A stretch of 64,000 bases of DNA from a virus. The DNA is taken from positions 678 to 64,677 of IMG/VR virus record IMGVR_UViG_3300020045_010174. The stretch is one strand, 5' to 3'. Below, in pieces: positions 9,851 through 28,110 of this stretch. The translations under genes and the position numbers were made by a program. Position 1 is the first letter of the stretch. The number at the start of each line of letters is the position of its first letter. The notes beneath the pieces are model-generated. The model saw nothing but the letters and a program-made list of their open reading frames with translations, made no database searches and was not told where the DNA came from.

Positions 9851-10392
9851 GTCAGTAAGTAACACTGATAGAGTGAAGCAACACTCATCATCATGATGAG
9901 CATTGCTCACAGATGCAAACGAACAGAGTAAACGGACATGCACAAATAGCGCAAGCTATGCATGAGCATGCACCGATATAACCGGATATAAGACCGTTAG
10001 AGATGTCATCAAATACGGTTAAGTATCCAAATGAATGCCTGATGAGGCGTGGCCAATAACCACGATTAGTTACGTATAGGGCACGATATAGGCCAAACTG
10101 AGCAGTAGCTCTAACCAAGGAATTATAGGGGCTCTACACAGTATCTTCCCCGAAAGGAACTATATACTATTAGGGATCGGGGTAGGTCACCTGAGTGGAC
10201 TCGTGTTAATACAGAAATTCATCGGGGTTAGATGTCATAAGCTGAAATTAGGGGATACTTATTAGTACCCTCTTAAGACGAAACTTCATTTACTACTGCC
10301 CAGTAAGTTAAAATACCACATGGAACAAATGCGGTTAAAGTCCGCAGTCCCCGTATCATATAGGGGACATGTTCCCCAATGAGGTATAGAAA

Positions 10393-11070: not shown

Positions 11071-11100
11071 GAGATGTGAATTTTTTATATCTCTTATGAG

Positions 11101-11550: not shown

Positions 11551-12528
11551 TACACATGATCATAGATAACAAACATGTTACCATCATCCATATGGATGAC
11601 ATACAGCTAATGCAAATATTTGAATTTCTCCCATCCGGTGAGGTCGAATATTCCGAAGCATACGTATCCGAAAAACAAGGAATCAAAGTAAGTGAATCAC
11701 AACCATATTAAGCGAGTGATGATCATGCAATTTCACAGAATAATTACCGAAAGAAACGATAACACCATGGAATCAAGAATGAACAATGCAGCGAGGGAAG
11801 GTTTTAAACTTCACCAATTCGAAGTTGTCGTTACAGGTGAACGATTAACACCAACATTTTGCGCACTAATGATAAAGGAAGTACCATGAAAACTCCAATA
11901 TGCAGCGACTGCATAAATTTACAAACCTGCGATGAACCCTTCATCTATTCATTTCTTGAATGTATAAACTTCGAATACATCCCCTACATAAAGGAGTAAT
12001 ACTATGAGTATGAAAAGAATTTCAACAAGAATCCAAAGCACAGTAATGGAAAAACTGGGAATCCGTCCAAAGTCCATCAAGCAAATACTCAATGATGAGT
12101 ATGTAAAATCTTTACAGGTGTGTTGATTATGCAACGAAACGATTTTCTTTACATGATCATCCATCTTCCACTTACATTACTATGCATCTACTTAATCTAT
12201 GATTTACTATCCTCTCCCATTATCCATCCATGAGCATATAAAATACTCCAGATAGTATCCTTTATATACTCACGTTTTAATCATTACTGAGCAACTTCAA
12301 AAATAAACTATCTAAAACATTTTAGACCACACACTTAAAAGAATTTTATACTTCACAAATTCCTTTGACATGACGGGTCTAAATTCTTTAAGATAGTCAC
12401 GAATGATTCACCCGACATCATTTCCAAGGCAAAATATGAGGTGAATTTATTTTTAAAAACCAGCGGTTTTACCCATATTTTCCTAAATTCTGTCTTAAAC
12501 TCTATCCTCTACTCTTTTTCTTTTATGC

Positions 12529-12598
12529 AAAAAAAATAAATAGAAGAAAGAAAAAAAGAATAGAAAAAATAAAAGTATAAACCCTTAAGTTTAAGACA
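12529..12598. repeat. ~70 bp A-rich intergenic element, copy 1 (second copy at 59632-59702)
   Basis: 'aaaaaataaatagaagaaagaaaaaaaga...gtataaa...ttaagtttaagaca' is shared with 59632-59702 (about 85% identity by eye). Confidence 0.6.
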
Positions 12599-12853
12599 CT
12601 TTCTTTAGACAGTGTGGTCTAAACTTTTAAGTGAAGTTCAAGGATGCGTTATAAGCAATTAAAATTATCGTTTCCTCCAAAGATATAGGGGTATATTCGA
12701 TCTCTTCTCCTGGATAGAATTTACCCTTATGCTGATGATCTGGGACTAAGCCACATGTCCCACTCCTAAACCACGGTTAATTCCCTGCGAAGTCTTAGGG
12801 AAAGTGAGTCCGTTTACGGGCATGAAACCCTACCGTGGAAGCATTTATAAAAG

Positions 12854-13063
12854 GTGATACTTATGGAACTAATAAAAGGAACGAAAGTATATTATGATGG
12901 CTCTTTGATAGGTCGCAACAGTGGAATGGGCGGCTCAAAGGGAACTGGTGTTATTACAAAGACACATTTAACAGATGATTGGGTGGAAGTAACACTCGAC
13001 AAAACCGGATACAAAATAGCAATGTCAAAAGAGCGTATGAAAATTGCAACCAATACAAAGTAA
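12854..13063 (+). CDS. small hypothetical protein, distant relative of the tandem mini-gene family
   Basis: 69 aa; G-x-x-V/Y...W-V-E-V pattern; SD 'aaggtga' upstream. Confidence 0.4.
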   Translation: MILMELIKGTKVYYDGSLIGRNSGMGGSKGTGVITKTHLTDDWVEVTLDKTGYKIAMSKERMKIATNTK

Positions 13064-13374
13064 TGGAGTTGATACAATGCCAAACCAATCTGAAACATTT
13101 ATACTCGACCGTGAAAACGGAGCTATGATCTGGATAGATATAGACATTGAAGTACATAAAAAGAAAAAGGAAAATGAAGGTTAATAACATGAAACTAATA
13201 TCAGCAAAGCCTGTGAAACAATTTCGACCATTCGACATAAGAATAGAAACAGTAGCAGAAGCAAGATCCTTGTGGCTCGAATTGGAAAACGATATGATTG
13301 AAGCAGAAGCACCAAGTCAAAAGTTAGCAGAAATGATACGCATCGAACTCAGTAATCAAGAGTTATTATAAGAG

Positions 13375-13671
13375 GTGATAATTATGCCAAAACTAAGATA
13401 CAAACGCAGTAAAGATACATCAAGAAAGGAAGCAAAAATAAAAGAATCAATTGCTTCCCAAGAAAGAAGAGAACAACGGACTGTCGAATCCATCAAATCA
13501 AAACCAATGGGGACACAGTATCCTAAAGGATATAAAACCTGCAGGCCAGACCTTGCAGTCCGGGAAACATCAGACAACAGTATTGAAAAACTCAAGGAAG
13601 AACTGCGGAAACTTCCCTCAATCATAACCGAAAACAAACCAAGCGACCCATCATCTCCCCGCTTCAAGTGA
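13375..13671 (+). CDS. basic hypothetical protein
   Basis: ORF with Lys/Arg-rich N-terminus; 'gaggtga' SD. Confidence 0.4.
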   Translation: MIIMPKLRYKRSKDTSRKEAKIKESIASQERREQRTVESIKSKPMGTQYPKGYKTCRPDLAVRETSDNSIEKLKEELRKLPSIITENKPSDPSSPRFK

Positions 13672-13970
13672 TGAGTATGCCACTCGCCGAGAAATACAAT
13701 AAAGATAAATTAAATACACAGATTGAGTTTCCATTTTGGGAAATTAAAGATGCATATAAACAGGATAAGATGCGGGTTAAGTATCAAGATAACATCAGAG
13801 CTATCCAAAGAAATTTTAGAGCGGATCTTATTCAAACATATCTACCTGGAAATAGAAAGGCAGAAAAGGTTTTTTTTATCGCTTGGAAAACTGCACATAA
13901 CCGCGGATATGAAGAGGTAGAAAAATGCTTCAAAGAACTTGCAGAACTGGTGACATCAGACGACGATTAG
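13668..13970 (+). CDS. hypothetical protein (100 aa)
   Basis: ORF whose start overlaps the upstream stop. Confidence 0.4.
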   Translation: MMSMPLAEKYNKDKLNTQIEFPFWEIKDAYKQDKMRVKYQDNIRAIQRNFRADLIQTYLPGNRKAEKVFFIAWKTAHNRGYEEVEKCFKELAELVTSDDD

Positions 13971-14560
13971 AACTCAGTAATCCAGAATCATTTCCCACAT
14001 CGGAAGAGCTTGAAGTGAGAAGAGAATTCGCATCTGATGTCATGCTCATGGGTTTGAATATAAGTATGATCTTTATGATACTGGGTGCAGTAATAGTAGC
14101 ATTCGTATCGACCCGATATATGGGGTATACTGGATTCAACATTGCTTTCTTTGGCACACTCTTAGATGTATTGTGTGGTGCATTGATTGCATATCATTTC
14201 GGAAGTAGACAGAGGATGATTGTATGAAAATAGAACATGAAATAAAAGAAAAAAAATTCGAACCGTTTAAGATAGCAATTGAAACGGAAGAAGAAGCGAT
14301 GACTTTCTGGGTGAGGTTTCTTCAAGGTGATATCTCATTTGCAAATGGGTTCGGAGATCCTATAATGAGGGCGGCATCAGCGACACTTGAAACAAGAAGC
14401 ATCTTCAATAAGCTATCTGAAGAGATGGAAAGGCAAGGTATAACGAGAAGTAAAATTATTTCCCGGGTGAAAAAATGAACATCAATATAAAAATGTATGG
14501 GTTACTATCCGTAGTGACCTTAATAACAGCAGCGGCGATAGCAGTATTTGCGGAGAATAT

Positions 14561-15031
14561 GTGAAAAGAAATATAAAAGAATCTGTCTGGAAACAAATAG
14601 ATAAGAGGGGAGAAGATGATTGTTGGGAATGGATGGGATATAAAAATAAAGATGGATATGGTAGGATTAGTATTGGCCGTAAACTTTATTCCACACATAG
14701 GTTGGTATATGAATTAATGAAAGGTAATATATTACATAATGAGGTCATAATGCATTTGTGTAATAATCCATCCTGTTGCAATCCAAAGCATCTTAAGTGT
14801 GGAACCCAAGAAGATAATATATATCAAATGTATGAAGAGGGTAGAGATAGACATATGATTCAAGAAGGGGAACTTAATAATAATAGTAAATTATCAAATG
14901 AAAAAGTTATTGAAATTAGAAAATTATATTCTTCTGGAAATCATTCTCAAAGACAGATTGCAAATCAATATAATATAAATCAGGCACTGGTTTCTGGAAT
15001 TATAAATAAAAAATTATGGAAACATATATAA
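14561..15031 (+). CDS. HNH homing endonuclease with C-terminal HTH
   Basis: 'HRLVYELMKGNILHNEVIMHLCNNPSCCNPKHLKCGTQEDN' HNH motif; C-terminal 'RQIANQYNINQALVSGI' HTH. Confidence 0.75.
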   Translation: MKRNIKESVWKQIDKRGEDDCWEWMGYKNKDGYGRISIGRKLYSTHRLVYELMKGNILHNEVIMHLCNNPSCCNPKHLKCGTQEDNIYQMYEEGRDRHMIQEGELNNNSKLSNEKVIEIRKLYSSGNHSQRQIANQYNINQALVSGIINKKLWKHI

Positions 15032-15035
15032 GGAA

Positions 15036-15272
15036 GTGAATGAAATGGTTTCAGACGCAGGACTAATAGCAATAGGTGCAGGAATAGCAGTAGGACTAAC
15101 AGGAATCGGGGCTGGTTTAGCCGAGGCTACTATCGGTGCAGTAGCTGTGAGAGCGATGAAAGAAGATAGTAAATTCTTAGGAAAAGGATTACTCATGACA
15201 GTGATCCCCGAATCAATAGCCATCTTTGGCTTAGTAGTAGCCCTCATCTTACTGTTCGTATTCAACACATGA
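15036..15272 (+). CDS. A/V-type ATP synthase proteolipid (subunit c/K)-like two-helix membrane protein
   Basis: 78 aa. Helix 1 is 'GAGIAVGLTGIGAGLAEATIGAVAV'; helix 2 is 'IPESIAIFGLVVALILLFV' with a conserved carboxylate in a PE(S/T)xxI(Y/F)GLV context, as in archaeal AtpK / V-type c subunits. Confidence 0.6.
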   Translation: MNEMVSDAGLIAIGAGIAVGLTGIGAGLAEATIGAVAVRAMKEDSKFLGKGLLMTVIPESIAIFGLVVALILLFVFNT

Positions 15273-15282
15273 GGGGACAGAT

Positions 15283-15570
15283 ATGGATAATAAATTTGCA
15301 GAGTTTGTAAGTGCTTGTATTTTGGAGAAGTTAAATGAGATAACTTTCTCAGTAAGACATGCTGACTTGATTAAAATTCAAGAGAGTATATACTCAAAGA
15401 GAATGTATGCTCCGGGTTATAGAGTCTTCGGTGGATTTTTCTGCCCTTGTTGTAAGAAGAATTTAACTAAAGAGGAAGTGGATAATAAATATATCCTAAA
15501 ATGTACATGCGGATATGAGTATGCAGGATCAACCTATCCAGATGATGATGATGAATCATATAGATTCTAG
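15283..15570 (+). CDS. zinc-ribbon hypothetical protein with acidic tail
   Basis: 'FCPCCKKN...KCTCGYEY'. Confidence 0.45.
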   Translation: MDNKFAEFVSACILEKLNEITFSVRHADLIKIQESIYSKRMYAPGYRVFGGFFCPCCKKNLTKEEVDNKYILKCTCGYEYAGSTYPDDDDESYRF

Positions 15571-16147
15571 GGGTTAATTATGAATGAATATAAACTTATT
15601 TCTCCTCACGGACATACAGTAATTGTGATGGGTGATATGTTTACACGTGATCAAATTTGGGTGGGTGATCTTTGGCAGGCGAGAGTACCAACCGATTGGT
15701 TGGTTATAGTTACCAGGGGTGTTGATAAGAAATGAACGATGAAGAACGAACAGAAGAAATTGATAGACTATATTCAGCTCTTCGGGTAGAACTCGATGAG
15801 ATCGAAAGAGTTTCCAATGAAGCCATGGAGAAAAGGAAATCTAATCTGATCACCAAGTTTAATAAGCGTATGGTAAAACTTATAAAGCTATGGGAAAAAT
15901 TAGATAAGCAGGAAGAAGTAATCAAAACCAAAGCAACCCTATATAAACTCAACCACGAATCCAGTGAACTCGACGAACAGATAAACGAACTCTCACAATA
16001 AACCGGGGGATGGTATGTTCGAATCAAGAATCGAAAGAGTGTTAGCCCTTAAATGTGGAATCGAAATGAAACAAATCGAAAAGTATTACATCAAATCAAA
16101 TTGCATTACTGTACTCAGATTCAGTAAATAAAATCAGGGAGGTCATC

Positions 16148-16501
16148 ATGTCAGAAACAGAATTAATAATGAACACATTGATAGCACTATCTGATAAGAT
16201 CGGGATAGCTGCAACGGAAATCTCCCGTATCTTCATCGAGGCACAACCCAAAATAGCGATGGTGAATTTAACATTAGCGGGAATCATTATAATATTAACC
16301 AGTATATCAATGGCGATTGTAGCATACATAGAATATAATATCAATCATTCCGATGATTGTCTATCTGCAATACTGGTTGCTGGAATAGTAACATTGGTTA
16401 TCTCTATATTCATAGCAGCAATTATTGCACCAAATCTATATGCTATCGTAGCTCCAGAATACATTGGTCTCAAAGATATGATCAGTACAATAAGAGGATA
16501 A
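16148..16501 (+). CDS. small multi-TM membrane protein (holin-like candidate)
   Basis: Strongly hydrophobic 117-aa ORF; followed by another small TM ORF (~16513-16695). Confidence 0.4.
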   Translation: MSETELIMNTLIALSDKIGIAATEISRIFIEAQPKIAMVNLTLAGIIIILTSISMAIVAYIEYNINHSDDCLSAILVAGIVTLVISIFIAAIIAPNLYAIVAPEYIGLKDMISTIRG

Positions 16502-17004
16502 TAGGTGAGAGCATGCTCGGACAATTAATATTACTTTATGTAATTATATTTTTAGCATTCGCATTTCACCAAAATAAAACGAATGATATTATATCAACAT
16601 TCGTCACTGTTGCGTTAAAATTTTTTATTGTAACAGCCTGTATAATGTTGATACTCATCGTCGGATCTATAATCATTGCGCTATGGAATGTATAAAATAA
16701 ACGGAGGTCGCCATGTATATACTGGACATCATTAAAAACTACATCAGTAATTTCTTTAAGGGGATAGAAGAAAAACATGGTGGCCTCAGCAGAGAGTCAA
16801 CCGAAGAATATAAAATAAAGAAACCATTCAAATGCACATCAAAAAAGATCAGAGTTCCAGAAAAGATTATCAAAGTAAAGGAAAGAAAACCCACAGTAAT
16901 AAAACATAAGAAATTAAACCTTGAGTTTTATCCAATACATGAAGCCCCAAAAGCAAGGGTGATGAAGCAACAAGACTCGTGTCAGCTGAAGTATAATTAA
17001 GGAA

Positions 17005-17376
17005 GTGATGATCATGAAATATCCCGAAGCTTTAAACTTAATAGAAGGTTATCTTATATCAACCGGCATTCGAAAGTATTGTACTGAAGTATGTCATGGT
17101 GATTGCTGTAGGACATGTGACTCACATCAATGTAATACACAAAGAAACATTGCATGTTCAACATACGTATGTGATAAGATAAAGGATAAGAGGATACACA
17201 TCATACTGTGGATGCAATCACTCAGACACATATCAAATACAATAGGTAGATCGGCCTTCTGTGTATATGATGGACTGACAGATGAGGAATATAAAAAATT
17301 AAATGAGTCTGAGTTACCCCGTGGATTTGTAATAGACCTATTAAATCTTTTAGAAAAACCCAGGATAAAACAATAA
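17005..17376 (+). CDS. Cys-rich hypothetical protein
   Basis: 'CTEVCHGDCCRTCDSHQCNTQRNIACSTYVCDK'. Confidence 0.45.
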   Translation: MMIMKYPEALNLIEGYLISTGIRKYCTEVCHGDCCRTCDSHQCNTQRNIACSTYVCDKIKDKRIHIILWMQSLRHISNTIGRSAFCVYDGLTDEEYKKLNESELPRGFVIDLLNLLEKPRIKQ

Positions 17377-17383
17377 AATTAAT

Positions 17384-17477
17384 ACTCCGGTATCTCAGTC
17401 AAGTATGTATGCATCATACTGCAGAAGAGAGCTGGTGTTAAACCAGAGTGTCGTGGGTTCAAATCCCACCCGGAGTT
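17384..17477 (+). tRNA. tRNA-like gene (unusually long, ~94 nt; probable intron or long variable arm; isotype undetermined)
   Basis: 7-bp acceptor pairing 'actccgg' / 'ccggagt' flanks a canonical T-arm 'gtggg-ttcaaat-cccac'. A perfect 5-bp/7-nt-loop hairpin 'gtatg-tatgcat-catac' sits inside. I could not fold a canonical D-arm by eye. Confidence 0.5.
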
Positions 17478-17735
17478 TTGGCCAAATAAACGGCCATATT
17501 AAAACGGAAGTATTATATGTAAGTAGTTATGAATAAGGCTGCCCGGATTGGGCGAGAGAGGCGATCGGATTATGAATAGGATAAGAGGTTGTCGTAAATA
17601 AAGATAGAAGATTTAACTATTTATATCAAAACAAAACCATATAAAAGACATACCGAGATGAACCACTTCTCTGTTGAGTAACATTGGATCAGGATCATAA
17701 TTAAAAGTGGCTGTGTATGTTAGTCATAATCTCGT

Positions 17736-17827
17736 GCTTCGGTAATCTAATGGCGAGGTGCTAGTCTAGGTAGGAGTGGGTGGCCTATCGGAAACCTGTT
17801 AAGTGAGTTCGATTCTCACCCGGAGCA
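17736..17827 (+). tRNA. tRNA gene (~92 nt; long variable arm or intron; isotype undetermined)
   Basis: Acceptor 'gcttcgg' / 'ccggagc' (one U-G), D-arm 'atct-aatggcg-aggt', T-arm 'gtgag-ttcgatt-ctcac', discriminator a. Confidence 0.55.
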
Positions 17828-17868
17828 TTTGCCAGATTCGGCAATAGTATTTCAGAGGTGAAATAAAT

Positions 17869-18993
17869 ATGAACAATAAATTGTGGATAGTCTTGATCGC
17901 CCTTGTTGGGATCGGATTGTATGCACTGCCAGCGACCATGTCGCTCTTCGCGGGACAACATTCGTTCGTTAACATCGACGCAACAGGCAATCAGATCGAC
18001 TGTGTGAAATGTCATGGCGACGTAAAAGCAGAATTAAATTCTGGTGGAGTCAATGCCAAGACAGGAACAGTAGGCCCACACGCTTCGTTCAAATGCGAAT
18101 ACTGTCACAGAATAGAAGCCGGTGCTTCAAGCGGTGACAACGCCTACGCAATAGTCACATATACAAACGGAACAATTCCGACTGTATCTGGGATCAGTAA
18201 TATGAGAACCATTGCTATTAGCATGGCTGACTTTGAGGAAGAGAACTTCCCAGCAACCATAACAAATGATGTGACAACCATAACACAGGTTGAAACAGCA
18301 TGGGGTAATACATTCGCTAAGGCATATGGTGGATCCGCTCAGGCTGCAATCAGTCCTCAGGCAATAGGAACTGAACTGGACACAACAGTATTAACAATAT
18401 ATAATGAGTACGAGAAGCCTTTGTATTCAGCAGGCGCACCCATAGATACCTCCGCTAGAAAAACCGAGGGTATGATCCTTAATAAGAATGGTGCTACCAA
18501 CTGGACGAAGAGTTCAAGGTACTGGACACCATCGTTGTATGGTGTAGGTTCCAGAGTAATTAATCCAGGCTCAGAGTATCACGCCGCATCATTGGTATCA
18601 TGTCTTGAATGCCACGGTGGTTCAGAACCACTCGGTCATTACAGCAGAGTACTTGATGGTGAATCAACCGCCTCATGTGAACAGTGTCACTATGGTTCTA
18701 CAAATAGATGGACAGAACTTAGTGCTGGAGGATTCGGTATACTCGGTGGAAAAGATACTGGAGCAACAGAAGCCCACAAGGATTTCGTCACAACCAATGA
18801 TGGAATGACAAGGCAGAAAGATGGTATAAGTAATGGTGCATGTGTTGCATGTCATACTCACGTAGCAGTAGACATCACATACAACAAACCAGATACATAT
18901 ACATTCAATGCAGCAAACACAATTGGAAATGGTGACTGGACAGTCGGCCCATATACAGCAGCAGGAAACGTAACAAGTAACAGCAGCCCGTAA
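17869..18993 (+). CDS. secreted multiheme c-type cytochrome (5 CxxCH)
   Basis: N-terminal TM/signal 'MNNKLWIVLIALVGIGLYALPATMSLFAGQHSF'. Heme motifs CVKCH, CEYCH, CLECH, CEQCH, CVACH. Confidence 0.8.
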   Translation: MNNKLWIVLIALVGIGLYALPATMSLFAGQHSFVNIDATGNQIDCVKCHGDVKAELNSGGVNAKTGTVGPHASFKCEYCHRIEAGASSGDNAYAIVTYTNGTIPTVSGISNMRTIAISMADFEEENFPATITNDVTTITQVETAWGNTFAKAYGGSAQAAISPQAIGTELDTTVLTIYNEYEKPLYSAGAPIDTSARKTEGMILNKNGATNWTKSSRYWTPSLYGVGSRVINPGSEYHAASLVSCLECHGGSEPLGHYSRVLDGESTASCEQCHYGSTNRWTELSAGGFGILGGKDTGATEAHKDFVTTNDGMTRQKDGISNGACVACHTHVAVDITYNKPDTYTFNAANTIGNGDWTVGPYTAAGNVTSNSSP

Positions 18994-19000
18994 AGAGAAC

Positions 19001-19423
19001 GTGGGGGTCAAATCCCCACACTTTCTATCACGAGGAGATGAAATGAAATATTTATTAATAGTTATATTTATATTACTCGTGCCTCAAAACACAATGGCCT
19101 TAAAACAACCATTGGAGTATGGAATAAATCAATGTGAATTGATAGCAAAAGATTATCAAAACATATATGGTGGTTCATTAGTCTGGATACAACCACTCAA
19201 AGACAATGGTGCGTATGATCTCGGTGAATACAATGCCCATATAATCAATCGTGTATATATATATAATGAGGGAATTATTTATATTGATTATCAATCTGGA
19301 TTCAGCGGGCATAATTTATCAGATGTCGGTAATTGGTATGAAGTATATAGTGGGAACAATGCTTTCATGATTTTTGAATTATATAAAGAAAGACCACCCT
19401 TCCCTATGTGGTGGCATTACTAA
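19001..19423 (+). CDS. secreted hypothetical protein
   Basis: Signal peptide 'MKYLLIVIFILLVPQNTMA'. Confidence 0.45.
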   Translation: MGVKSPHFLSRGDEMKYLLIVIFILLVPQNTMALKQPLEYGINQCELIAKDYQNIYGGSLVWIQPLKDNGAYDLGEYNAHIINRVYIYNEGIIYIDYQSGFSGHNLSDVGNWYEVYSGNNAFMIFELYKERPPFPMWWHY

Positions 19424-19437
19424 CATCAGAGGTGACC

Positions 19438-19893
19438 ATGAGACTATATCTTTTTATACTATTACTGTGCCTCATTCCACTCGCAAATGCGGATGATGGT
19501 GTATGTATATTCTGTCATAAAAATATAGATAGCTTCATGTTCCAATCAGCATGTAAGGATTGTCATGATACAGAAGATCCCACACATGCCATCAACAGAT
19601 GTATCGGTTGTCATCGAGCAACCAATGTAGATTCCTATCATCGACTACACAACAACACACCATGTTCAACCTGCCATGCTGATGCGGAAAAACCAAAGGG
19701 AATAACCCTGTCAGCATGTGCTTCATGTCATAAGAATACTGTGGTTAATATCCACTTAAATAAAACGATGACTCCAGAAACATCGTTACCTATTATTAAA
19801 CCAGCACTCATAGACACATGGAAAAAATATACAGTAAGTTCCATAATACAATTCTTCTATAACGTATACAGTAAAGAAATAAAGGTGATATAA
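19438..19893 (+). CDS. secreted pentaheme c-type cytochrome
   Basis: ATG preceded by SD 'gaggtga'. Signal 'MRLYLFILLLCLIPLANA'. Heme motifs CIFCH, CKDCH, CIGCH, CSTCH, CASCH within ~120 aa. Confidence 0.8.
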   Translation: MRLYLFILLLCLIPLANADDGVCIFCHKNIDSFMFQSACKDCHDTEDPTHAINRCIGCHRATNVDSYHRLHNNTPCSTCHADAEKPKGITLSACASCHKNTVVNIHLNKTMTPETSLPIIKPALIDTWKKYTVSSIIQFFYNVYSKEIKVI

Positions 19894-19894
19894 A

Positions 19895-20311
19895 ATGGCA
19901 AACAAACTAATGATATTATTCGGATTGACTCTCATGATTGTGGCAGTAACAAGTTTACAATCTGCTGCAAATGAAACCAAACCGGGTCTGAGCTTAGAGA
20001 TTACAGTGAAGGATGATGTCGTTACCAATGTAAGTATGAAGCAGGTTGAACTTCCATTCTTCTATAAACAAACCAGCGGCACAGTTGACTTCCCGGATAT
20101 AAGTGTCAACGCAAAACCTGGTCAGCTTGAAGCAAAGCCAATAACATACTGGGCATCTTCTCCATATTCAGGGGACGGTATCTATACAATGACCCTATCA
20201 TTTGATGGAACTATACCGAAGGTAGATGACTTCCTAATACTTCCCATCAGAATAACAAATGACAGAGGCCACATCATCTATAAACAAACCGGGTTTTATA
20301 CCTGGAGATAA
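19895..20311 (+). CDS. secreted hypothetical protein
   Basis: Signal peptide 'MANKLMILFGLTLMIVAVTSLQSAANE'. Confidence 0.45.
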   Translation: MANKLMILFGLTLMIVAVTSLQSAANETKPGLSLEITVKDDVVTNVSMKQVELPFFYKQTSGTVDFPDISVNAKPGQLEAKPITYWASSPYSGDGIYTMTLSFDGTIPKVDDFLILPIRITNDRGHIIYKQTGFYTWR

Positions 20312-20628
20312 ACATGTATGATAGAATAGAACCTATCATGATGTTTGTATTCATACTCATGATGTTTATATCAGTGGGTATGGTGATGATTGCATCATAT
20401 AATTTATTAGTGGGTGTAGGTAATCTCCCCTGCAACGAACCATTGATAGTATTATATATCAATCCACCCTGAGTAAAGATAACTAAAGTTATATTCGGAG
20501 GTAAGTATGAAAAAGTCTACGGAGATAATATTAAGTCTTGTGTTAGGATTAATCGCAATGGGTGTGGGAATATACATGAGTGGATCACCATGTACATGAG
20601 ATTCATATATGAAGAAATGAGGTGACTT

Positions 20629-20985
20629 ATGAAAGCGTTGGTAGTAATGGTAGCATTGATAGGTATATTGTTTTGGAATCTACCCGCTACCAACTCATCA
20701 TTTAAAGGACAGCATTCCTTCTACACCGAAGTAGATTGTACCAAGTGTCACTTAGAACAAACCAATTATCTAACCCATACATCAACACTCAACCATACAA
20801 TGACCTGTAAGATATGTCACCCGCAAGATAGAATGTCATCTCACTCAGCAAGGAGAGGATCATGTTATGTTTGTCACTATACTATTCCTTCTGTTGTTCC
20901 TTCTACTGTGCTTGTGGATGCGGGGGTCACCGAAACTCTTACAGTTAATAGCGACCCAATACAAATTCAAACCAGCCCAACTTGA
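20629..20985 (+). CDS. small triheme c-type cytochrome, paralog of the 17869 N-terminus
   Basis: 'LPATNSSFKGQHSF' parallels 'LPATMSLFAGQHSF'. Heme motifs CTKCH, CKICH, CYVCH. Confidence 0.7.
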   Translation: MKALVVMVALIGILFWNLPATNSSFKGQHSFYTEVDCTKCHLEQTNYLTHTSTLNHTMTCKICHPQDRMSSHSARRGSCYVCHYTIPSVVPSTVLVDAGVTETLTVNSDPIQIQTSPT

Positions 20986-21025
20986 AAAGGATACTCGCAA
21001 AGAGGATTGGATCATCTTAATAATA

Positions 21026-21505
21026 ATGATCACCCTCATTATAATACTGGGTGTTAAACTAATAACACTGCAGGTTATAGTATCCGATAGTATGAAGCCC
21101 GAATTCCAACGTGGTGATATCATAGTATCCCAATCAATTGATCTCAATGTTTCAGTTGGGGACATCATCACATTCAATACAATCAGTAGTCAATACGCAG
21201 TCACACATAGAGTTATAGAAATCAGAGATGATAGAATCATAACCCGCGGTGATGCTAATCCCTGGAACGATGACTACTACACCACAAACAAAGATGTAAT
21301 ATTCAAAGCTATAAATCTTTCCGGCCCCATCGTAATTAAAAACCTCGGTGGATTCTTCATAACAGATTACAGTAAGCAGGGAATGATTTATAAGTTTGGA
21401 GACCAGTACACCTTCATGCAAAATCTATCAGCCACAATTAAAGTGTGGGGTAGATTGATTACATTAATAGCAATAGTAATATACATTCTTTCTATGAAGA
21501 GGTGA
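21026..21505 (+). CDS. signal peptidase I, ER/archaeal (Sec11-like) type
   Basis: Box B 'SDSMKPEFQRGDIIV', box C 'GDIITF', box D with His 'THRVIE', box E 'GDANPWNDD'. The six-frame ORF begins at 20867 but would overlap the cytochrome by 118 nt, so the internal ATG at 21026 is preferred. Confidence 0.65.
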   Translation: MITLIIILGVKLITLQVIVSDSMKPEFQRGDIIVSQSIDLNVSVGDIITFNTISSQYAVTHRVIEIRDDRIITRGDANPWNDDYYTTNKDVIFKAINLSGPIVIKNLGGFFITDYSKQGMIYKFGDQYTFMQNLSATIKVWGRLITLIAIVIYILSMKR

Positions 21506-21508
21506 GTT

Positions 21509-22255
21509 ATGAAACTACAAAGTATCTGTTCAATAATACTTGGAGGCATCATAGGTATAGCAGGCACAGTATCCCTTGTGATTGATATCCTTACCATGCT
21601 TGAACCAATGAAACTATTAATAGATATGGTAGTCATGATTATGGGATTCCTCACCGCATATCAGGGACTCACAGCACATCTCTTCGAGACGATGCTTAAG
21701 AATAAGATGGAAGCAGAGTGGGATTATAAAATGAAACCACTCATTGATCTCATAACAATTACCGCTGGTAAAGTAAATAGTCTTGAGGAAAATGCCCTTG
21801 AAACAAATCTAAAGGTATCTCATACATTAGATCAGTTGAATAATAATAGGATTGAGAACATTGATATCATACCGGGTGCATCATTCAAGTTTATTATTAA
21901 GTCAATGATGCTCTTGACATTTACATTCTCCGCACTGGTATTCGTTAGTGAATATCCCCTAGGAATAATACATTACTTCCTTACTGTATTATTTGTAGCG
22001 TGGTTCGCACTCATAACTTCCGAATATAAGTTGTGGGGAAATACAAATGCAATGGTGATAGGTGTCATGCCTGTCCTGATAGTACCAACACTGGCAATGC
22101 TACTCGATACATTAATAGGAATCAATAACATGATTGGTCTAATGTTTGTATGTCTCTTTATATATACTTATAGTTATTATACATGGGCATCATATACAAC
22201 AACAGGTTATCAACTCATCAGCCTGAAACCAATCAAGCAATTACTTCGGAGGTAA
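21509..22255 (+). CDS. polytopic membrane protein, hypothetical
   Basis: 248 aa with multiple hydrophobic helices. Confidence 0.5.
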   Translation: MKLQSICSIILGGIIGIAGTVSLVIDILTMLEPMKLLIDMVVMIMGFLTAYQGLTAHLFETMLKNKMEAEWDYKMKPLIDLITITAGKVNSLEENALETNLKVSHTLDQLNNNRIENIDIIPGASFKFIIKSMMLLTFTFSALVFVSEYPLGIIHYFLTVLFVAWFALITSEYKLWGNTNAMVIGVMPVLIVPTLAMLLDTLIGINNMIGLMFVCLFIYTYSYYTWASYTTTGYQLISLKPIKQLLRR

Positions 22256-22617
22256 TATGATGGAAGATATACTGCAAAGAAGTATTGAGGAAAGAAATCA
22301 TCACACAACTTATCATGTAGTTCATTTGGGTGGGGGTAAGTATGTAATCCTAAATAGATTTTCACCACACTTGAAACCAGGTTGGTGATAACAAACCATT
22401 CCCCGATGTCAAGATTGGGGATGTGGTATAGCGATATAGATATCGTGTAGTAAAATTCGGAGGTAAAAATATGAGCTTAGTAAAACATCTATGGATGGAC
22501 ATCGTTCCACAAACAACACATAAAGCAAGAAAATATATACCATCGTATGAAACAAGACTCAAGAAAGCAGAGGCTAATGTGGCCAGACGAATGGCCAAGG
22601 TTAAGTAAATAGATTTG

Positions 22618-22681
22618 ATGGTGTCAGGTAGACGCGCTGAAACTTTGAGATTACCTGGGTTCAATTCCCGGGCACCATCAT
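22618..22681 (+). other. tRNA-like fragment / truncated tRNA (acceptor + T-arm, no canonical D/anticodon arms)
   Basis: 'atggtgt'...'ctggg-ttcaatt-cccgg'-'gcaccat'-c. Only 28 nt lie between the acceptor and the T-arm, too short for a full tRNA; the internal hairpin is ggta...tacc. Confidence 0.3.
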
Positions 22682-22816
22682 TGTGTGGGAGCCTTGGATT
22701 TCAAATATCCGGGCTCTATTAAAAAGATACGCTCGAGTATATAGGAGTGGTCGCGTGAATCTAATTTTTATGTCCCGCCTTAATAGCAGTCCGCGATGAC
22801 TGCCGTATCTTTTGAA

Positions 22817-22899
22817 GCGAGTATTGCTGAGTGGTCAAAGGCGCGAGACTCAAGATCTCGTCTAGTAGTAGTTCAGGAGTTCGAATCTCCTTACTCGCA
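22817..22899 (+). tRNA. tRNA-Leu(CAA), type II with long variable arm
   Basis: Acceptor 'gcgagta' / 'tactcgc', D-arm 'gct-gagtggtcaaa-ggc', anticodon arm 'cgaga-ctCAAga-tctcg', variable 'tctagtagtagttc', T-arm 'aggag-ttcgaat-ctcct', discriminator a. Confidence 0.65.
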
Positions 22900-22912
22900 T
22901 AGAGGTGATTAC

Positions 22913-23119
22913 ATGGTTAAAGTTGGAGAGGTGTGGGTAAAAGATCCGTGTAAGGAATGGTATTGGGGAGATCATTGTGGTGAACCTGTAATCGTCATGG
23001 GAGTAACGTCCCGTGAAATTTATTATAGATATGTATATATAGATTATAATTATCATTTGGTGGGTATGTTGATGCGAGATGATTTTTTATCTTTCTATAA
23101 ATTGATTAAATCTGTTTAG
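22913..23119 (+). CDS. tandem mini-gene family member A1 (~68 aa, M-V-K-V-G-E-V-W ... Y-R-Y ... KSV)
   Basis: ATG directly after tRNA-Leu, with 'agaggtga' SD; paralogous to the next four ORFs. Confidence 0.6.
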   Translation: MVKVGEVWVKDPCKEWYWGDHCGEPVIVMGVTSREIYYRYVYIDYNYHLVGMLMRDDFLSFYKLIKSV

Positions 23120-23138
23120 ATTATGGAGTGATAATCAT

Positions 23139-23354
23139 ATGGTTCTAGTTGGTCAGATCTGGATGAGAAATCCAAAGATGAAAAATTACTGGGGAGATGA
23201 CGCTGGTAAATTAGTTGTCGTTACTACTCTAACTAATAGCACAGTATATTATAGATATGTGGATTATGAATCCTATGATGAGTTTGTTCACTTCCAGGGG
23301 GCTAGAGAATTAGATGCCTTCATAAAAAGATTCGTATTATATAAAGATGTGTGA
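23139..23354 (+). CDS. tandem mini-gene family member A2
   Basis: 'MVLVGQIWMRNPKMKNYWGDDAGKLVVV...YYRYV...FVLYKDV'. Confidence 0.6.
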   Translation: MVLVGQIWMRNPKMKNYWGDDAGKLVVVTTLTNSTVYYRYVDYESYDEFVHFQGARELDAFIKRFVLYKDV

Positions 23355-23578
23355 GGTATCATATGATTGAACCCGGTCAGATTTGGATGAGAGATCCAGA
23401 GATGAAAATTTATTGGGGAGATGCGGCTGGTAAATTGGTTATCATTATTTCTATACTCGATGACAATATAAGGTATAGATATATATCTTGGTATAATGAT
23501 GAGTCAGATCACCACCACGTGGGGGAGTACAGTAGATTTTCTTTTTTAAGAAAATTTAAATTATATAAAGATGTATGA
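23351..23578 (+). CDS. tandem mini-gene family member A3
   Basis: 'MIEPGQIWMRDPEMKIYWGDAAGKLVII...RYRYI...FKLYKDV'; ATGA overlap with A2. Confidence 0.6.
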   Translation: MRYHMIEPGQIWMRDPEMKIYWGDAAGKLVIIISILDDNIRYRYISWYNDESDHHHVGEYSRFSFLRKFKLYKDV

Positions 23579-23590
23579 GGTGATAATCAT

Positions 23591-23806
23591 ATGGTTAAAG
23601 CAGGGCAGATCTGGGTAAGAGATCCCACGATGGCATATTACTGGGGGGAGGATGTTGGAAAATTAGTCATCATTACCAGTGTATCAACTCATGAGATTAA
23701 TTATAGATATGTTGAACATTCTTGGGAGGATGGATTCAAACATTATATTGGATGCAGACCATTCGATAATTTTCAAAATAGATTTAAATTATATAAAGAT
23801 ATATAA
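23591..23806 (+). CDS. tandem mini-gene family member A4
   Basis: 'MVKAGQIWVRDPTMAYYWGEDVGKLVII...NYRYV...FKLYKDI'. Confidence 0.6.
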   Translation: MVKAGQIWVRDPTMAYYWGEDVGKLVIITSVSTHEINYRYVEHSWEDGFKHYIGCRPFDNFQNRFKLYKDI

Positions 23807-23817
23807 GGTGATATGAC

Positions 23818-24024
23818 ATGGTGAAGGTAGGTGAAGTATGGGAAAAGGTTGATCCAGTGGGGGACTATTGGCAGTATGAGGAATACCCATTAGTAATTGT
23901 TACCAAGGTGACTGAGAATTATGTAAAGTATAGATGTCATGTTACTAATATAGTAGGTCATTATAAAAATATCAGACCACTTAAAGAGTTTGAATCTATG
24001 TTTGCACTACACAAATCCATATAG
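23818..24024 (+). CDS. tandem mini-gene family member A5
   Basis: 'MVKVGEVWEKVDPVGDYWQYEEYPLVIV...KYRCH...FALHKSI'. Confidence 0.55.
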   Translation: MVKVGEVWEKVDPVGDYWQYEEYPLVIVTKVTENYVKYRCHVTNIVGHYKNIRPLKEFESMFALHKSI

Positions 24025-24475
24025 GAGAGAGTATGATAGAACAACTACCAACCAGAAGGGAAATGTTTTTAATAGCCATCGCAATAATACTATACCTGAC
24101 CACAGCTTATACAATGATTGAACCCACTGAGTCTCTTCAAGTGGATGAGGAAATAATATATCTTATTAACCCAAGTGACTATGATGGTATTATTATCAGG
24201 GCACTACCACCCACCTCATACTTGGATGAAGAGAATGTCCTCCGAAGATATGGGAGATGAATATGTGGGGTTGAATACCTATGGTCTCGATACTATAATA
24301 ACCCTCCTCTGGACACATAAAAATAGTACCATAGAGTTATCTTGCTTCGAGGCAAGCAATCCCGATTAAAAGTTACCCCTGTGTAACAGCAGGTTTAACC
24401 GGTGGGATAAAGATACTACGCGCAAAACCTAATCAATACCCCCAAGTCCCACCGTCTTATTTATGAGGTGATAAT

Positions 24476-24946
24476 ATGAAAGTAAGTAAAATAACATTTG
24501 CTATGATTATAATTGCTATAAATATAGCACTATTAATTGCAATAGTATCAACGGATATTGGTGTCAAATCATCCACCACATTATATTATATCAACGACTC
24601 AGATCGACATACTGCAGATTATATCTTAGGGAATACTTATGCAATACATGATGAAAATTTGAGGATGGTTGATACATCGATGACACCATCGATGATTCCA
24701 ACTATTCAACCCGGGCAAAATGTATTGGTAAGTAATAATGTATCTAATATAAATTTGGGTGACATTGTTATTTATAAATATGATGAGAACTTTGCTGCAT
24801 TCCCAACGTCCTATAATTTAATTATACATAGAATCATCTTTATAAATGAAACGCACTTCATAGCGATGGGTGATAATAATTCAATCGATGATGGACTTTA
24901 TCCAAGAAGCGCATTGAAAAGTGTGGTGGTTGCAATTTTATTTTGA
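24476..24946 (+). CDS. second signal peptidase I paralog (ER/archaeal type), N-terminal TM anchor
   Basis: Box B 'DTSMTPSMIPTIQPGQNVLV', box C 'GDIVIYKY', box D 'IIHRIIF' (His), box E 'MGDNNSIDDGLY'. Confidence 0.6.
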   Translation: MKVSKITFAMIIIAINIALLIAIVSTDIGVKSSTTLYYINDSDRHTADYILGNTYAIHDENLRMVDTSMTPSMIPTIQPGQNVLVSNNVSNINLGDIVIYKYDENFAAFPTSYNLIIHRIIFINETHFIAMGDNNSIDDGLYPRSALKSVVVAILF

Positions 24947-25090
24947 GGTGATAACATGAGAATAGAATTATTTGGTAAAGAAGTTGTGGATACATACATG
25001 TCTAATACAGAAGGAGAGTGTGTGGTTATTCTAGGAGTTGTTATCTTTTTAATAATGATGATAGCTCCACTTTGGAAATGGTGGTGAACT

Positions 25091-25537
25091 GTGGTCTTAG
25101 ATATTTTGGTGGGGAAAAAGATAGAAAGAATATTTTTCAATGAATCATATCTTAAATTCCAAACCGATTCGGGATCATTTGTTTTTTATGTAGATGGTGA
25201 TTGCTGCTCACGTTCTATATTTTATGACTTCATTGGTGTTAAAAAATTATTAGAGAATGGAAGAGTGGTATCCATAGATAGTATTGCACTCGATCCAGAT
25301 GATATAAGAGAGAATGAGGATGGGGAAATGCAAGATAAAAAAAGAAGTGATGAAGCTATTAAAGTATACGGTTACAGAATTGTAACGGAAGATCCCACAT
25401 TCGGTCTACTCAGTTCTGTATTTTCATTCCGTAATTATTCTAATGGATACTATGGAGGAAGTCTGGAAGACAATGGTGGAGACAGAGATGTTCAACCGGA
25501 AATATTTGATGATGTTTTTGAGACAGTAAGTGAATAA
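25091..25537 (+). CDS. hypothetical protein (148 aa)
   Basis: ORF; acidic C-terminal half. Confidence 0.45.
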   Translation: MVLDILVGKKIERIFFNESYLKFQTDSGSFVFYVDGDCCSRSIFYDFIGVKKLLENGRVVSIDSIALDPDDIRENEDGEMQDKKRSDEAIKVYGYRIVTEDPTFGLLSSVFSFRNYSNGYYGGSLEDNGGDRDVQPEIFDDVFETVSE

Positions 25538-25917
25538 AAATAATACGAGGTAAAATATGGATAAAAATAACTGTGCATTTGGTCAAGCAATACTTGGTGG
25601 GGACACCATTAAGTTCCCTGTATGTAAAGGCGATTGTCCTGATGACTGTAAATATCATGTGGCTCCAGTAACATTATCATCTAAGAAGGCACGTAAACAA
25701 AACATTATCAAGTGAGGTGATTCGATGGAATTTAGAATGATGATAGCGAGGACATATATGCTTTTCCTTGGGCTACTGATGTTGATATTATATTTTACTT
25801 CAACACTTCCCGACCCCACCCTTACAATACGTTTCAAAATAATATGGGGAGTAATAACTTCAATAGGAACTTCATTCTGTTGGAGTACAGCTATAACATA
25901 AATGGAGGTGAATTGTT

Positions 25918-26187
25918 ATGACTTTATGCGACTGGTATAATGATGTAATGAATTGGATGGATGTGGTGGGAAATAAATTAACAGATGATGATTCCCACCG
26001 CAGAGAAAATGTGAAAGAAATAAATATATTATTAATTCCAATTCATATAGTGGGGTATTTTATATTAGCCTCCATCCTAGTATTAATTATATTGGGTGGT
26101 AGGTGGATTTTAAAATTCTCCACATCAAAGGAAAGTGATGCACACAGAGAAAAATATTTTCAGAGACGGGTGGATTACGATCTATGA
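25918..26187 (+). CDS. small TM hypothetical protein
   Basis: ORF with one strongly hydrophobic helix. Confidence 0.4.
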   Translation: MTLCDWYNDVMNWMDVVGNKLTDDDSHRRENVKEINILLIPIHIVGYFILASILVLIILGGRWILKFSTSKESDAHREKYFQRRVDYDL

Positions 26188-28110
26188 CAGAATCAATCCA
26201 ATTCACTTGTAAAAAATGTGGGCGAGGATATCAATCTCTCCCACAATGTGCCTGTGAGATATGCGGGAATACGATTTTTATTGCGGAGAAAAGAAAAAGT
26301 TTACAGTTAATATAAGAGGTGAAACTATGGCAAGAGCAAATCAAAAATTTAAATCACATAAAAATAAACATGAGATACTTGAAACGAAAAGAAAATCACA
26401 CGGAGGCAAGCCCATCAAAGTTAAAGCGGAGATAGTGGTATGAAGTACATAGCCCGGGCAGGTTCATATGAGGATGGGAATATAATCACCATCCCAGACG
26501 GTTCAATTGGAGTCACCACATTAAAAACTGCATATGAGGGATGCTTATGTGTAACGTGGCTTGAGCCATACGAGAAATGAAACATGAAGCTTATAACGAA
26601 AGAAGAGATAAATGATTACGAGGTGGAGATCGGCCCCGGTGATACTGTTCCCCTATCCACATTAGTACATAAGATGCAAGAACGCATTAGGGCAACAGCA
26701 TTTGAAGTTGATCTCTGGAGAAAATAATGAAAAGATATTGCTTGAAAGATGGAACTATCTTCGATGATGATCCTGCTCGTGAAGGTGGGGAACGATTCAA
26801 GTGTCCAACATGCGCATTAAGAAAAGAAATGCAAGAAGAGATACAGAATCTTAAAGATGAGATTCTTTCTCTTACAATACGTCTCGGAGATATTAAGAGG
26901 TGAAACTATGGTACTTACATACTATGAAGTCTTAAAACGAATTGATGAAATTTTAGTTGCGATCGAGGGGGAAGTGGCAGTTGATCCATACGAATTGATC
27001 CAAGAACTTAGAAATGATATGGTGGCATGATTATGTTTCAAGTCTTAATAGGATGTAATCTTACCAAAGGACATGTGGATCCAAACGCTGGTATGTTCGG
27101 GGTATTACACGAGGGATCATTCCCAAATCTAATACGACATTCTCCTATACTTGCAAGAGATAATACTGAGTGTCATGATAGGAGAACTAACAAATGCAGC
27201 TCCAATTGCAGACATTCAGTCTATGCTATCGCCGGAACAAAACTTTCATTCAGAAATACGGGGGCTCGGATATGAAATTTTCACACATTCTTGGGGGTAT
27301 ATTATGTCATATCATACCACCTACTGCTCTTGTTTTATTATATCTCCATCTGGTTTTACCATATGTGCGTAATGGAAATGATATATTCGCAGCAATACTT
27401 GTTGGGTTAATTGCTTGGATAGTATTATACTTTTCATTTGGTAATACGTGGGGAGAGATAATAGAAGTATATATGAGAGATGATAAGTAATGGATCTCAT
27501 AACCAATCTTATCAATGGAGGATTATTGATACTTTCCTTCATGGCAATAATAATAAATCGAAATAAAAACAGAGATGCGGCGATCTGGGCAACGGTTGCT
27601 TTTCTATCAGTCATACGATTATTATGAAGCTAATTAATTTAAGTGATCAAAGAATATGGGTTGAATTCCAAGGAGAAGATTTTACACAGGATGCAGAAAT
27701 GATTCCCCCCGGTAAAACTATCGAGATCCCAGAAGATTGTGGGGAAATAATAGTGAGGTGAATAGAATGTTTCAAGATGAACGCTCTGTAATTGGAGGTA
27801 TAGTTCATTCACCAGAGATATATATTATGGATCGGATATGTATAAATTGTGGAAAACGATACGGTAATCATTTTGGTGAAATGTGTTGGGAAGAATTTAT
27901 TAAGTTGAAAAGAAGTCCCACACCAACTGTTCCTGTACCCCTGTATTCCCCAACCCAGTGAAGCAACCACATTAAAAGCTGGGGAAGAAACTCGGATCAG
28001 ATCAGCAGGAATGTGTTGATATAAAGGGGTAAGAGAATAAGACACAACATAAATCTGGGGGTACATTGCCCGGGTTAGGGAGTCCCGGGCTTATATTTTA
28101 GGAGGATACT

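Follow-up and report, generated by a model that had tools for sequence, protein, structure and literature searches.

A predicted virus of Candidatus Methanoperedens carries a host-derived operon for putative cell-surface multiheme cytochromes

Methanoperedens archaea are methane consumers that pass electrons to nitrate, metal oxides or electrodes. Here, we analyzed a stretch of 64,000 nucleotides (the window) from a virus record of IMG/VR (IMGVR_UViG_3300020045_010174, positions 678 to 64,677). By its gene content, it is part of a tailed double-stranded-DNA virus predicted to infect Candidatus Methanoperedens, the ANME-2d clade of anaerobic methanotrophic archaea (ANME), and it harbors a cassette of multiheme c-type cytochrome genes. 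A described relative of the major cytochrome is AvECN (F2KMU8, PDB 8E5G), the subunit of an extracellular cytochrome filament of Archaeoglobus veneficus (Baquero et al. 2023 Cell, as cited through PMC12954529). A 2026 review noted AvECN homologs in Methanoperedenaceae and posed their formation of nanowires as a question (PMC13046784).

Mobile elements of this host have been described with cytochromes before. The predicted Methanoperedens virus Mp_virus_94kb_34_22 encodes two of them, with 5 and 6 hemes (genes 44 and 50); the 5-heme cytochrome groups with proteins of Methanoperedens and Borgs, its sequence was aligned to that of the A. veneficus nanowire protein, and an augmentation of electron transfer was proposed (bioRxiv 10.1101/2023.08.02.551345). 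Borgs of Methanoperedens carry a host-derived and highly expressed OmcZ nanowire cluster, composed of OmcZ, the OzpA protease and a prolyl isomerase (PMC11208441). Considering this preprint, the Borg OmcZ clusters and the review on AvECN homologs, virus-borne Methanoperedens cytochromes are an idea already published. Finally, a signal peptidase and an unannotated ‘8x TMH’ (transmembrane helix) membrane protein were found beside multiheme cytochrome clusters of ANME, Ferroglobus and Geoglobus and proposed as maturation factors (Chadwick et al. 2022, PMC9012536).

The locus described here resembles each of these systems in part. It shares with AvECN the homology in both halves of the major cytochrome, the N-terminal signature, four equivalent CxxCH heme-binding motifs and four distal histidines, and in both cases it has a small 5- or 6-heme cytochrome as its neighbor. 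The viral protein is longer (374 vs. 262 amino acids, aa), with a fifth heme motif and a beta-rich insertion of ~140 aa, and it is linked to genes for a signal peptidase and a membrane protein, which the A. veneficus locus lacks; polymerization of the viral protein is predicted only. As in Mp_virus_94kb_34_22, a Methanoperedens virus encodes a 5-heme cytochrome; the description of that virus mentions neither peptidase nor operon, whereas the window presents 5 + 5 + 3 hemes in a contiguous eight-gene block. The Borg OmcZ cluster likewise combines a putative nanowire cytochrome and a processing protease on an extrachromosomal element of the same host. However, the cytochrome family is a different one, the protease is the subtilisin-like OzpA rather than an S26 signal peptidase, and the carrier is a giant linear Borg rather than a capsid-encoding virus. 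In the pair reported by Chadwick et al., large cytochrome genes are likewise accompanied by a peptidase and a polytopic membrane protein that lacks annotation. This pair is likened to ours by description; the viral membrane protein has ~6 predicted helices vs. ‘8x TMH’. What appears to be new here is the 5 + 5 + 3 heme gene set, the whole host operon with its peptidase and membrane protein, the purifying selection in a viral lineage, and a third unrelated carrier.

The cassette extends over 17869-22255 (~4.4 kb) and consists of eight contiguous genes, six of which copy a host operon:

17869..18993, + strand: major cytochrome, 374 aa, five CxxCH (residues 45, 76, 245, 270 and 325), AvECN family
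19043..19423, + strand: secreted ORFan, 126 aa, signal-peptide-like N-terminus (ribosome-binding site and hydrophobic segment)
19438..19893, + strand: small pentaheme cytochrome, 151 aa, Sec-type signal peptide, five CxxCH (open reading frame, ORF, 19408-19893)
19895..20311, + strand: conserved non-heme operon member, 138 aa, one N-terminal membrane helix and a predicted beta-sandwich (host-operon homology)
20314..20472, + strand: single-helix membrane ORFan, 52 aa (ORF, ribosome-binding site and hydrophobic segment)
20629..20985, + strand: minor AvECN-like cytochrome, 118 aa, three CxxCH, same N-terminal signature (BLASTP)
20867..21505, + strand: archaeal/ER-type (endoplasmic reticulum; Ser/His) signal peptidase I, 212 aa (TIGR02228, 76.4 bits vs. 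a cut-off of 51.85)
21509..22255, + strand: conserved polytopic membrane protein, 248 aa, ~6 helices (44% identity to a host 293-aa protein)

An earlier reading of the same DNA (the original prediction) had proposed three cytochrome genes with 5 + 5 + 3 CxxCH motifs, two secreted partners and a peptidase ending at 21505. ORF listing reproduced the three + strand cytochrome ORFs, with 13 motifs in 3.1 kb. Six-frame translation of the whole 64-kb window gave 22 CxxCH; 16 of them lie within 17869-20985, 13 of these in the three ORFs, and shuffling that interval 300 times gave a mean of 0.2 and a maximum of 2. The secreted partners (19043-19423 and 19895-20311) were also borne out, each presenting a single N-terminal hydrophobic segment. 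The proposed end of the cassette did not hold: homology to the host operon shows that the membrane protein gene at 21509-22255 continues it. A GAGGTGA-type ribosome-binding site lies upstream of every cassette gene, and the intergenic gaps span 1-50 nucleotides (nt) with a single exception of 156 nt, which fits a single operon. Judging from homology and gene order, the cassette is a host-derived operon for putative cell-surface multiheme cytochromes on a Methanoperedens virus, and the auxiliary-metabolic interpretation appears as the best-supported one.

For the major cytochrome, a phmmer search of PDB sequences retrieved AvECN (8E5G_A) with an E-value (E) of 2.7e-19. The match falls in two stretches: residues 3-91, with the signature LP(A/S)T.SLF.GQH and hemes 1-2, and residues 231-361, with heme 3 and the last heme. 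The motifs at 45, 76, 245 and 325 are AvECN’s four; the additional motif CEQCH (270-274) lacks an AvECN counterpart and is present in a 5-heme A. veneficus paralog next to AvECN. Between the matching stretches lies the insertion (residues ~90-230), modeled by AlphaFold2 (AF2) with a predicted local distance difference test score (pLDDT) of ~87. The profile search put forward in the original prediction as a check also recovered a cytochrome family, Pfam Cytochrome_C7 (32.2 bits vs. a cut-off of 24.8). We retrieved 257 homologs, and all the named ones are from Candidatus Methanoperedens; the guessed connection to this archaeon was thus right, with its proteins as the nearest cytochrome relatives. 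By its length, its fifth heme and its insertion, the 374-aa protein belongs to a distinct Methanoperedenaceae subfamily of the AvECN family.

OmcZ, OmcS and OmcE gave no match to the 374-aa protein among PDB sequences (E up to 10), and the smaller cytochromes gave weak c7/c3 matches only. The sole other PDB match of the 374-aa protein was carcinoembryonic antigen (E 4.4e-4), a non-cytochrome that we discarded as chance.

The major and minor cytochromes share their N-terminal region (LPATMSLFAGQHSF in the 374-aa protein and LPATNSSFKGQHSF in the 118-aa protein), a similarity pointed out in the original prediction that proved real when both N-termini were aligned. Both contain the signature L-P-x-T-x-S-L-F-x-G-Q-H, followed by the first CxxCH. 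Across 14 major and minor subunits from the virus, the host, A. veneficus and other archaea, the P, T and H of the signature and the first CxxCH are invariant. When extending the comparison to 120 AvECN-family proteins, P22, T24, S26, L27, F28, G30, Q31, H32, W34 and Y35 are 93-100% conserved and the first CxxCH 97-100%. Thus, the shared motif is an AvECN-family signature. Four histidines outside the heme motifs (H32, H64, H108 and H165) are invariant in these 120 proteins, and the corresponding H31, H71, H238 and H303 are invariant in 28 Methanoperedens homologs, likewise H257 and H331. In the mature protein, the signature His very probably ligates a heme. P-x-T-x-S agrees with the -3/-1 rule of signal peptidase I cleavage, and we infer that the cut would fall just before L/S-F-x-G-Q-H.

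In A. veneficus itself (CP002588, locus L006), AvECN (8001-8789) and the 5-heme paralog (8961-9779) share a near-identical C-terminal stretch of ~75 aa, from SNEACIACHTYVPVKINW, with one substitution, the remainder presenting ~45% identity only. This suggests gene conversion between both genes.

The source of the cassette can be recognized in host genomes. There, the gene order is major cytochrome, small multiheme cytochrome, a 140-190-aa protein, minor AvECN-like cytochrome, an optional 490-aa gene, peptidase and membrane protein. We saw this order on the 3.3-Mb M. nitroreducens chromosome and on host contigs with housekeeping genes. A scan with one genome per species gave 27 loci, all from Methanoperedenaceae or unclassified archaeal metagenome-assembled genomes, and 23 of them had at least 5.5 kb downstream. 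On the same strand downstream, these 23 host loci contained the small cytochrome (19/23), the 138-aa homolog (17/23), the peptidase (16/23) and the 248-aa homolog (8/23). The closest host protein to the 374-aa cytochrome is 78% identical, and in a neighbor-joining tree (no bootstrap) the viral copies nest inside the host clade with the peptidase-membrane-protein arrangement, beside two of the loci (L003 and L005). Among the c-type cytochromes of an M. nitroreducens culture, homologs of ANME2D_02830, _02824 and _02827 rank as the top three by expression (PMC4683180). Mapped by gene order, these three are the minor and two major AvECN-like genes of one host locus (L001).

The position of the cassette inside a viral genome, together with the anaerobic NrdD, was part of the original prediction and is backed by viral genes on both sides. 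Apart from the two hallmarks listed below, the window presents a family B DNA polymerase, a D5 primase-helicase and NrdD, and hallmark genes flank the cassette on both sides. Many small same-strand ORFs are also found in the window.

5-2416, - strand: portal, viral hallmark
2807-4384, - strand: terminase, viral hallmark

A second viral contig, retrieved from another sample (L009, 13.9 kb), is colinear with 9977-27519 of the window at 70-88% nucleotide identity. It harbors the cassette at the same site, after the same transfer RNA (tRNA), with all six conserved genes and their motifs intact. We compared the window virus to this contig using the Nei-Gojobori ratio of nonsynonymous to synonymous substitution rates (dN/dS). 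The ratio was 0.08 for the major cytochrome, 0.17 for the small cytochrome, 0.19 for the 138-aa protein, 0.06-0.09 for the peptidase and 0.04 for the 248-aa membrane protein, the latter with 94% amino acid identity. Values of 0.04-0.19 for five genes show that the cassette is maintained by purifying selection in the viral lineage. The minor cytochrome presented ~0.57 and is relaxed or rearranged.

Base composition gave a similar picture. The G+C content at third codon positions (GC3) is 0.28-0.42 for the cassette genes, with a viral range of 0.317 +/- 0.068, vs. 0.45-0.49 for host accessory genes. The 374-aa gene has a G+C of 45% vs. 36.5% in the window, which is due to its Gly-, Ala- and Cys-rich composition and not to a shift in GC3; with a GC3 of 0.38, in the viral range, we rejected this bump as a sign of chimerism. 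A coverage or G+C break had been named in the original prediction as a sign of a chimera. No shift was found in GC3, and the colinearity with the second contig, the intact motifs, the dN/dS and the GC3 exclude a chimeric assembly.

The cassette was also found on an unrelated, very AT-rich element (L004, JGI Ga0136847_10022267, 74.9 kb), with 31% G+C and dozens of 40-90-aa same-strand ORFs. It lies at the contig end (locus 10001-12365) with a 5-heme 390-aa gene, a 6-heme 201-aa gene, a 145-aa gene and the start of a minor cytochrome, and its GC3 of 0.11-0.23 matches that of the element itself. To judge from composition and substitution patterns, the cassette has resided for long, and under selection, in mobile elements of at least two kinds. 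In IMG/VR, neither the 374-aa protein nor a 28-sequence alignment picked up a relative, these pattern-based scans being of limited sensitivity. No match came either from 50,697 GenBank phage records (tblastn) or from a megablast with 10-30 kb of the window, and thus viral carriage is rare or unsampled in those collections. In further IMG/VR scans, the terminase gave nothing, and the 148-aa gene at 25091 gave only unrelated viruses without cytochromes.

Regarding the signal peptidase, Pfam S26 also matched it (24.4 vs. 22.9), and it presents two N-terminal and one C-terminal hydrophobic segments. Its translation contains a Ser box SDSM(K)P, an Asp box GDANPWNDD and, in THRV, one single His (H114), which takes the place of the bacterial Lys; we assign the catalytic roles after those known from Sec11 and archaeal signal peptidase I. 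The original prediction was right about the archaeal type of the enzyme and wrong about its start at 21026. Host operon peptidases align from residue 1 of the longer ORF with 44-50% identity (50% over residues 1-212), and the alignment takes in an extra N-terminal membrane helix and a conserved “P(A/R)..(L/I)(E/K/Q)KDT”. The ribosome-binding site AAGGAGAGG lies upstream of 20867 and none is found at proper spacing before 21026, and the long overlapping ORF is likewise kept in the second viral contig. Thus, we place the gene at 20867-21505, so that its first 119 nt are shared with the end of the triheme gene. A SipW-type peptidase was considered and rejected, since the NCBIfam SipW model gave 38.1 bits vs. 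a cut-off of 190.

A comparable arrangement is tapA-sipW-tasA of Bacillus subtilis, where the operon of the secreted fiber subunits also encodes the ER/archaeal-type signal peptidase that processes them, with signal features common to the major and the minor subunit. The substrates are unrelated, and the likeness is an analogy only.

The 248-aa membrane protein has a host counterpart that comes directly after the peptidase in host operons. Its family is very small, with 63 clusters in 1.84 billion representatives (exhaustive HMMER). We found no Pfam domain in it and no informative domain in its relatives, some distant ones being fused to TPR (tetratricopeptide) repeats. It presents ~6 predicted helices and a loop with a single Trp, and it is possibly a maturation or assembly factor.

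The two smaller cytochromes have recognizable counterparts. For the 151-aa cytochrome, with its start most likely at ATG 19438, BLASTP matched a host 180-aa 6-heme protein (E 5e-13) and the A. veneficus 196-aa 5-heme neighbor of AvECN (E 3e-5). Methanoperedens, A. veneficus and other archaea encode its counterpart close to AvECN-like genes, a cytochrome of 180-212 aa with 5 or 6 hemes. The 118-aa protein matched a host 194-aa protein over its N-terminal part only (BLASTP, E 2.7e-13). The host genes found at this operon position encode 194 aa with 4 hemes or 275 aa with 8 hemes, and the ortholog on the second viral contig has 176 aa and 5 hemes.

The remaining cassette genes encode no heme motifs. 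The 138-aa protein is 38-45% identical to host 150/186-aa proteins at the same operon position. Its AF2 model (pLDDT 63) shows beta strands in a weak immunoglobulin-like sandwich, and its best Foldseek match was the DsbD N-terminal domain (E 0.06, not significant). The 126-aa ORFan, placed after the first cytochrome gene and before the second, is restricted to the window virus, with no counterpart in the host loci or in the second viral contig and no Pfam or PHROG match. The 52-aa ORFan is also found only in the window virus, with no homolog in any fetched locus; at its position, the second viral contig has an unrelated 51-aa zinc-ribbon ORF. PHROGs gave no match across the cassette.

One more gene of the virus is relevant to its possible effect on the host:

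15036-15272, + strand: A/V-type ATP synthase proteolipid, c/K subunit, 78 aa (PF00137, 59.9 bits)

It lies 2.6 kb upstream of the cassette, is kept in the second viral contig (2874-3101) and is the second bioenergetic gene on the virus. Mini-Borgs have been reported with the same ATP synthase subunit (bioRxiv 10.1101/2023.08.02.551345).

We consider it probable that the viral operon encodes a complete small cell-surface cytochrome system, forming an extracellular heme wire or a surface conduit that aids virus production. The pre-cytochromes would be exported by the Sec pathway and receive their hemes from the host Ccm heme-attachment system. The operon’s own peptidase would most likely cut after the conserved P-x-T-x-S, exposing L/S-F-x-G-Q-H as the mature N-terminus, whose invariant His would serve as an axial heme ligand. 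The major subunit would then assemble into the wire or conduit, in which the minor one would serve as end or adaptor, and the small secreted pentaheme cytochrome would likely be the electron relay that feeds the major subunit. Such a conduit could take electrons from methane oxidation to external acceptors. The viral copy, if expressed in infection, would supplement or replace that of the host and sustain the energy supply for virus production.

Several observations weigh against a wire of this kind. At the structural level, the 374-aa protein departs from the compact tetraheme architecture of AvECN (~230-320 aa) with its length, its five hemes and its 140-aa insertion, and it is more like the 5-heme A. 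veneficus paralog than the PDB 8E5G protein. Its AF2 model, made without heme, has pLDDT below 50 in the heme parts and gives no independent structural confirmation. When searching this model against PDB, 8E5G was the top Foldseek match with E 0.1, which is not significant; as the heme parts were modeled without heme at such low pLDDT, this value carries no weight either way. At the level of the operon, the minor cytochrome is shortened and fast-evolving in the window virus, with two hemes fewer than its ortholog on the second viral contig. The loci of A. veneficus and two other archaea with AvECN contain cytochromes but no adjacent peptidase, and thus the peptidase is not universal to the system and its linkage is a feature of Methanoperedenaceae. 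The window contains no heme-attachment (Ccm) genes, which makes the virus dependent on the host for this step. Finally, no filament sighting in Methanoperedens was reported in the 2026 review (PMC13046784).

Part of these observations agree with the main rival explanation, in which the cytochromes do not polymerize and work as a short membrane-anchored or S-layer-associated conduit, with the N-terminal helix retained as an anchor, or as soluble pseudo-periplasmic carriers, still being a respiratory auxiliary module. It would account for the extra heme and the large insertion relative to the solved filament subunit, for a C-terminal half whose closest A. veneficus relative is the 5-heme paralog, and for the lack of observed filaments in Methanoperedens; the 5-heme, insertion-bearing subfamily has never been seen as a filament either. 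However, the filament family’s N-terminal signature and its four distal-His positions are all kept, and P-x-T-x-S fits the cleavage rule with a dedicated peptidase co-inherited. Moreover, PDB 8E5G models 220 of the 262 precursor residues, consistent with the removal of an N-terminal helix. We regard this explanation as a serious minority option, at roughly one chance in a few. A non-metabolic role is unlikely, yet deserves mention: the virus would remodel or replace the surface cytochromes to block superinfection by viruses for which they are receptors, or alter cell-cell contacts, with no boost of respiration. Filaments are receptors for many viruses, and viral genes that modify the cell surface are known; a major subunit 78% identical to the host protein is compatible with co-assembly, and the cassette includes virus-only ORFans, one secreted (19043-19423) and one in the membrane (20314-20472). 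Nevertheless, the whole electron-transfer set, with the relay cytochrome and all heme ligands, is under purifying selection, which fits a redox function, and the ATP synthase c subunit on the virus points to bioenergetic manipulation. Finally, host DNA joined to a viral contig, or a decaying functionless passenger of a recent transfer, could explain the higher G+C of the 374-aa gene (45% vs. 36.5%) and the truncated minor cytochrome with its dN/dS of ~0.57. This explanation is effectively refuted by the hallmark genes on both sides, a cassette GC3 in the viral range and below that of the host, an independently assembled colinear contig from another sample with the cassette at the same site, and intact motifs with low dN/dS in five genes.

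Returning to the extracellular wire or surface conduit, a more specific version of it is possible, and we put it forward tentatively. The cassette could be a pared-down, minimal and self-sufficient AvECN-type wire module, in which the peptidase and the 248-aa protein would be the long-sought factors for maturation and assembly. The peptidase would create the N-terminus whose His completes heme ligation between subunits, and the minor cytochrome would be an initiator, cap or adaptor. The peptidase and the 248-aa protein are the most constrained cassette genes, although the host has its own copies. A capsid-forming virus lineage that keeps a cytochrome operon beside an ATP synthase c subunit suggests that infection may rewire the terminal step of methane-driven respiration. 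The six conserved genes provide a short list for reconstituting an archaeal cytochrome wire, with the dedicated signal peptidase and the unannotated membrane protein as candidate assembly factors.

Other features of the window are located around the cassette or further downstream:

17384-17477, + strand: tRNA-like gene, ~26-nt insertion in the D region (Rfam gathering run)
17736..17827, + strand: tRNA-like gene, Thr-GGT (ARAGORN), ~26-nt insertion in the anticodon loop (Rfam tRNA model, 33.6 bits, E 2.8e-5)
22817-22899, + strand: tRNA-Leu, normal, downstream of the cassette
24476..24946, + strand: second, divergent S26-type signal peptidase, 156 aa (TIGR02228, 45.4 bits)
44091-44819, + strand: lone Cas4-like PD-(D/E)XK nuclease (PF01930, 33.5 bits vs. 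a cut-off of 22.7)

With tRNA genes upstream and tRNA-Leu downstream, the cassette lies between tRNA genes. The tRNA-like gene at 17736-17827 forms its left flank, ending 41 nt before the first cytochrome gene, and is 84% conserved in the second viral contig. Both tRNA-like genes are ~93 nt long, and their insertions look like archaeal-type introns. The callers disagreed on them: ARAGORN called only 17736-17827, and the Rfam gathering run only 17384-17477. The insertion of an HNH homing-endonuclease gene is variable at this site; in the second viral contig, one such gene (4993-5451) separates the tRNA from the first cytochrome gene, which lie just 41 nt apart in the window (17829-17868). In the window, an HNH homing-endonuclease gene is found at 14561-15031.

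The second peptidase, which the original prediction had taken as another of the same type, is S26-like and contains the boxes SM.P, IHR and GDNN..DD; its TIGR02228 score is under the cut-off of 51.85. A strong ribosome-binding site of its own precedes this gene, which is not part of the operon and gave no match in the second viral contig.

The lone Cas4-like gene is another likeness to Mp_virus_94kb_34_22. A single Cas4-like gene is present in that virus and in Mp_virus_71kb_34_13 (bioRxiv 10.1101/2023.08.02.551345), and it is a possible family link of both to the window virus.

Just after tRNA-Leu (~22950-24024, + strand), we observed a tandem array of about five paralogous ~70-aa genes with the pattern MV.(V/A)GQ(I/V)W..DP...YWG..., which is also present in the second viral contig (10158-11063). 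The one copy searched had no Pfam or PHROG match. Near the packaging genes, on the + strand, 7972-8781, 7037-7510 and 5855-6355 encode a papain-family cysteine protease, a CxxCxxCC putative metal-chelating domain protein and a DUF488 protein, respectively.

Further downstream, the window contains three phiEco32-like COOH-NH2 ligase genes (32692-33585, 39075-41486 and 41450-43547, + strand), two of them each preceded by a class-II glutamine amidotransferase gene. Pairs of ligase and amidotransferase like these are linked to modification chemistry in phages. Near the ligase genes, an HD-domain gene and an SPFH/Band 7 gene are found (31049-32471).

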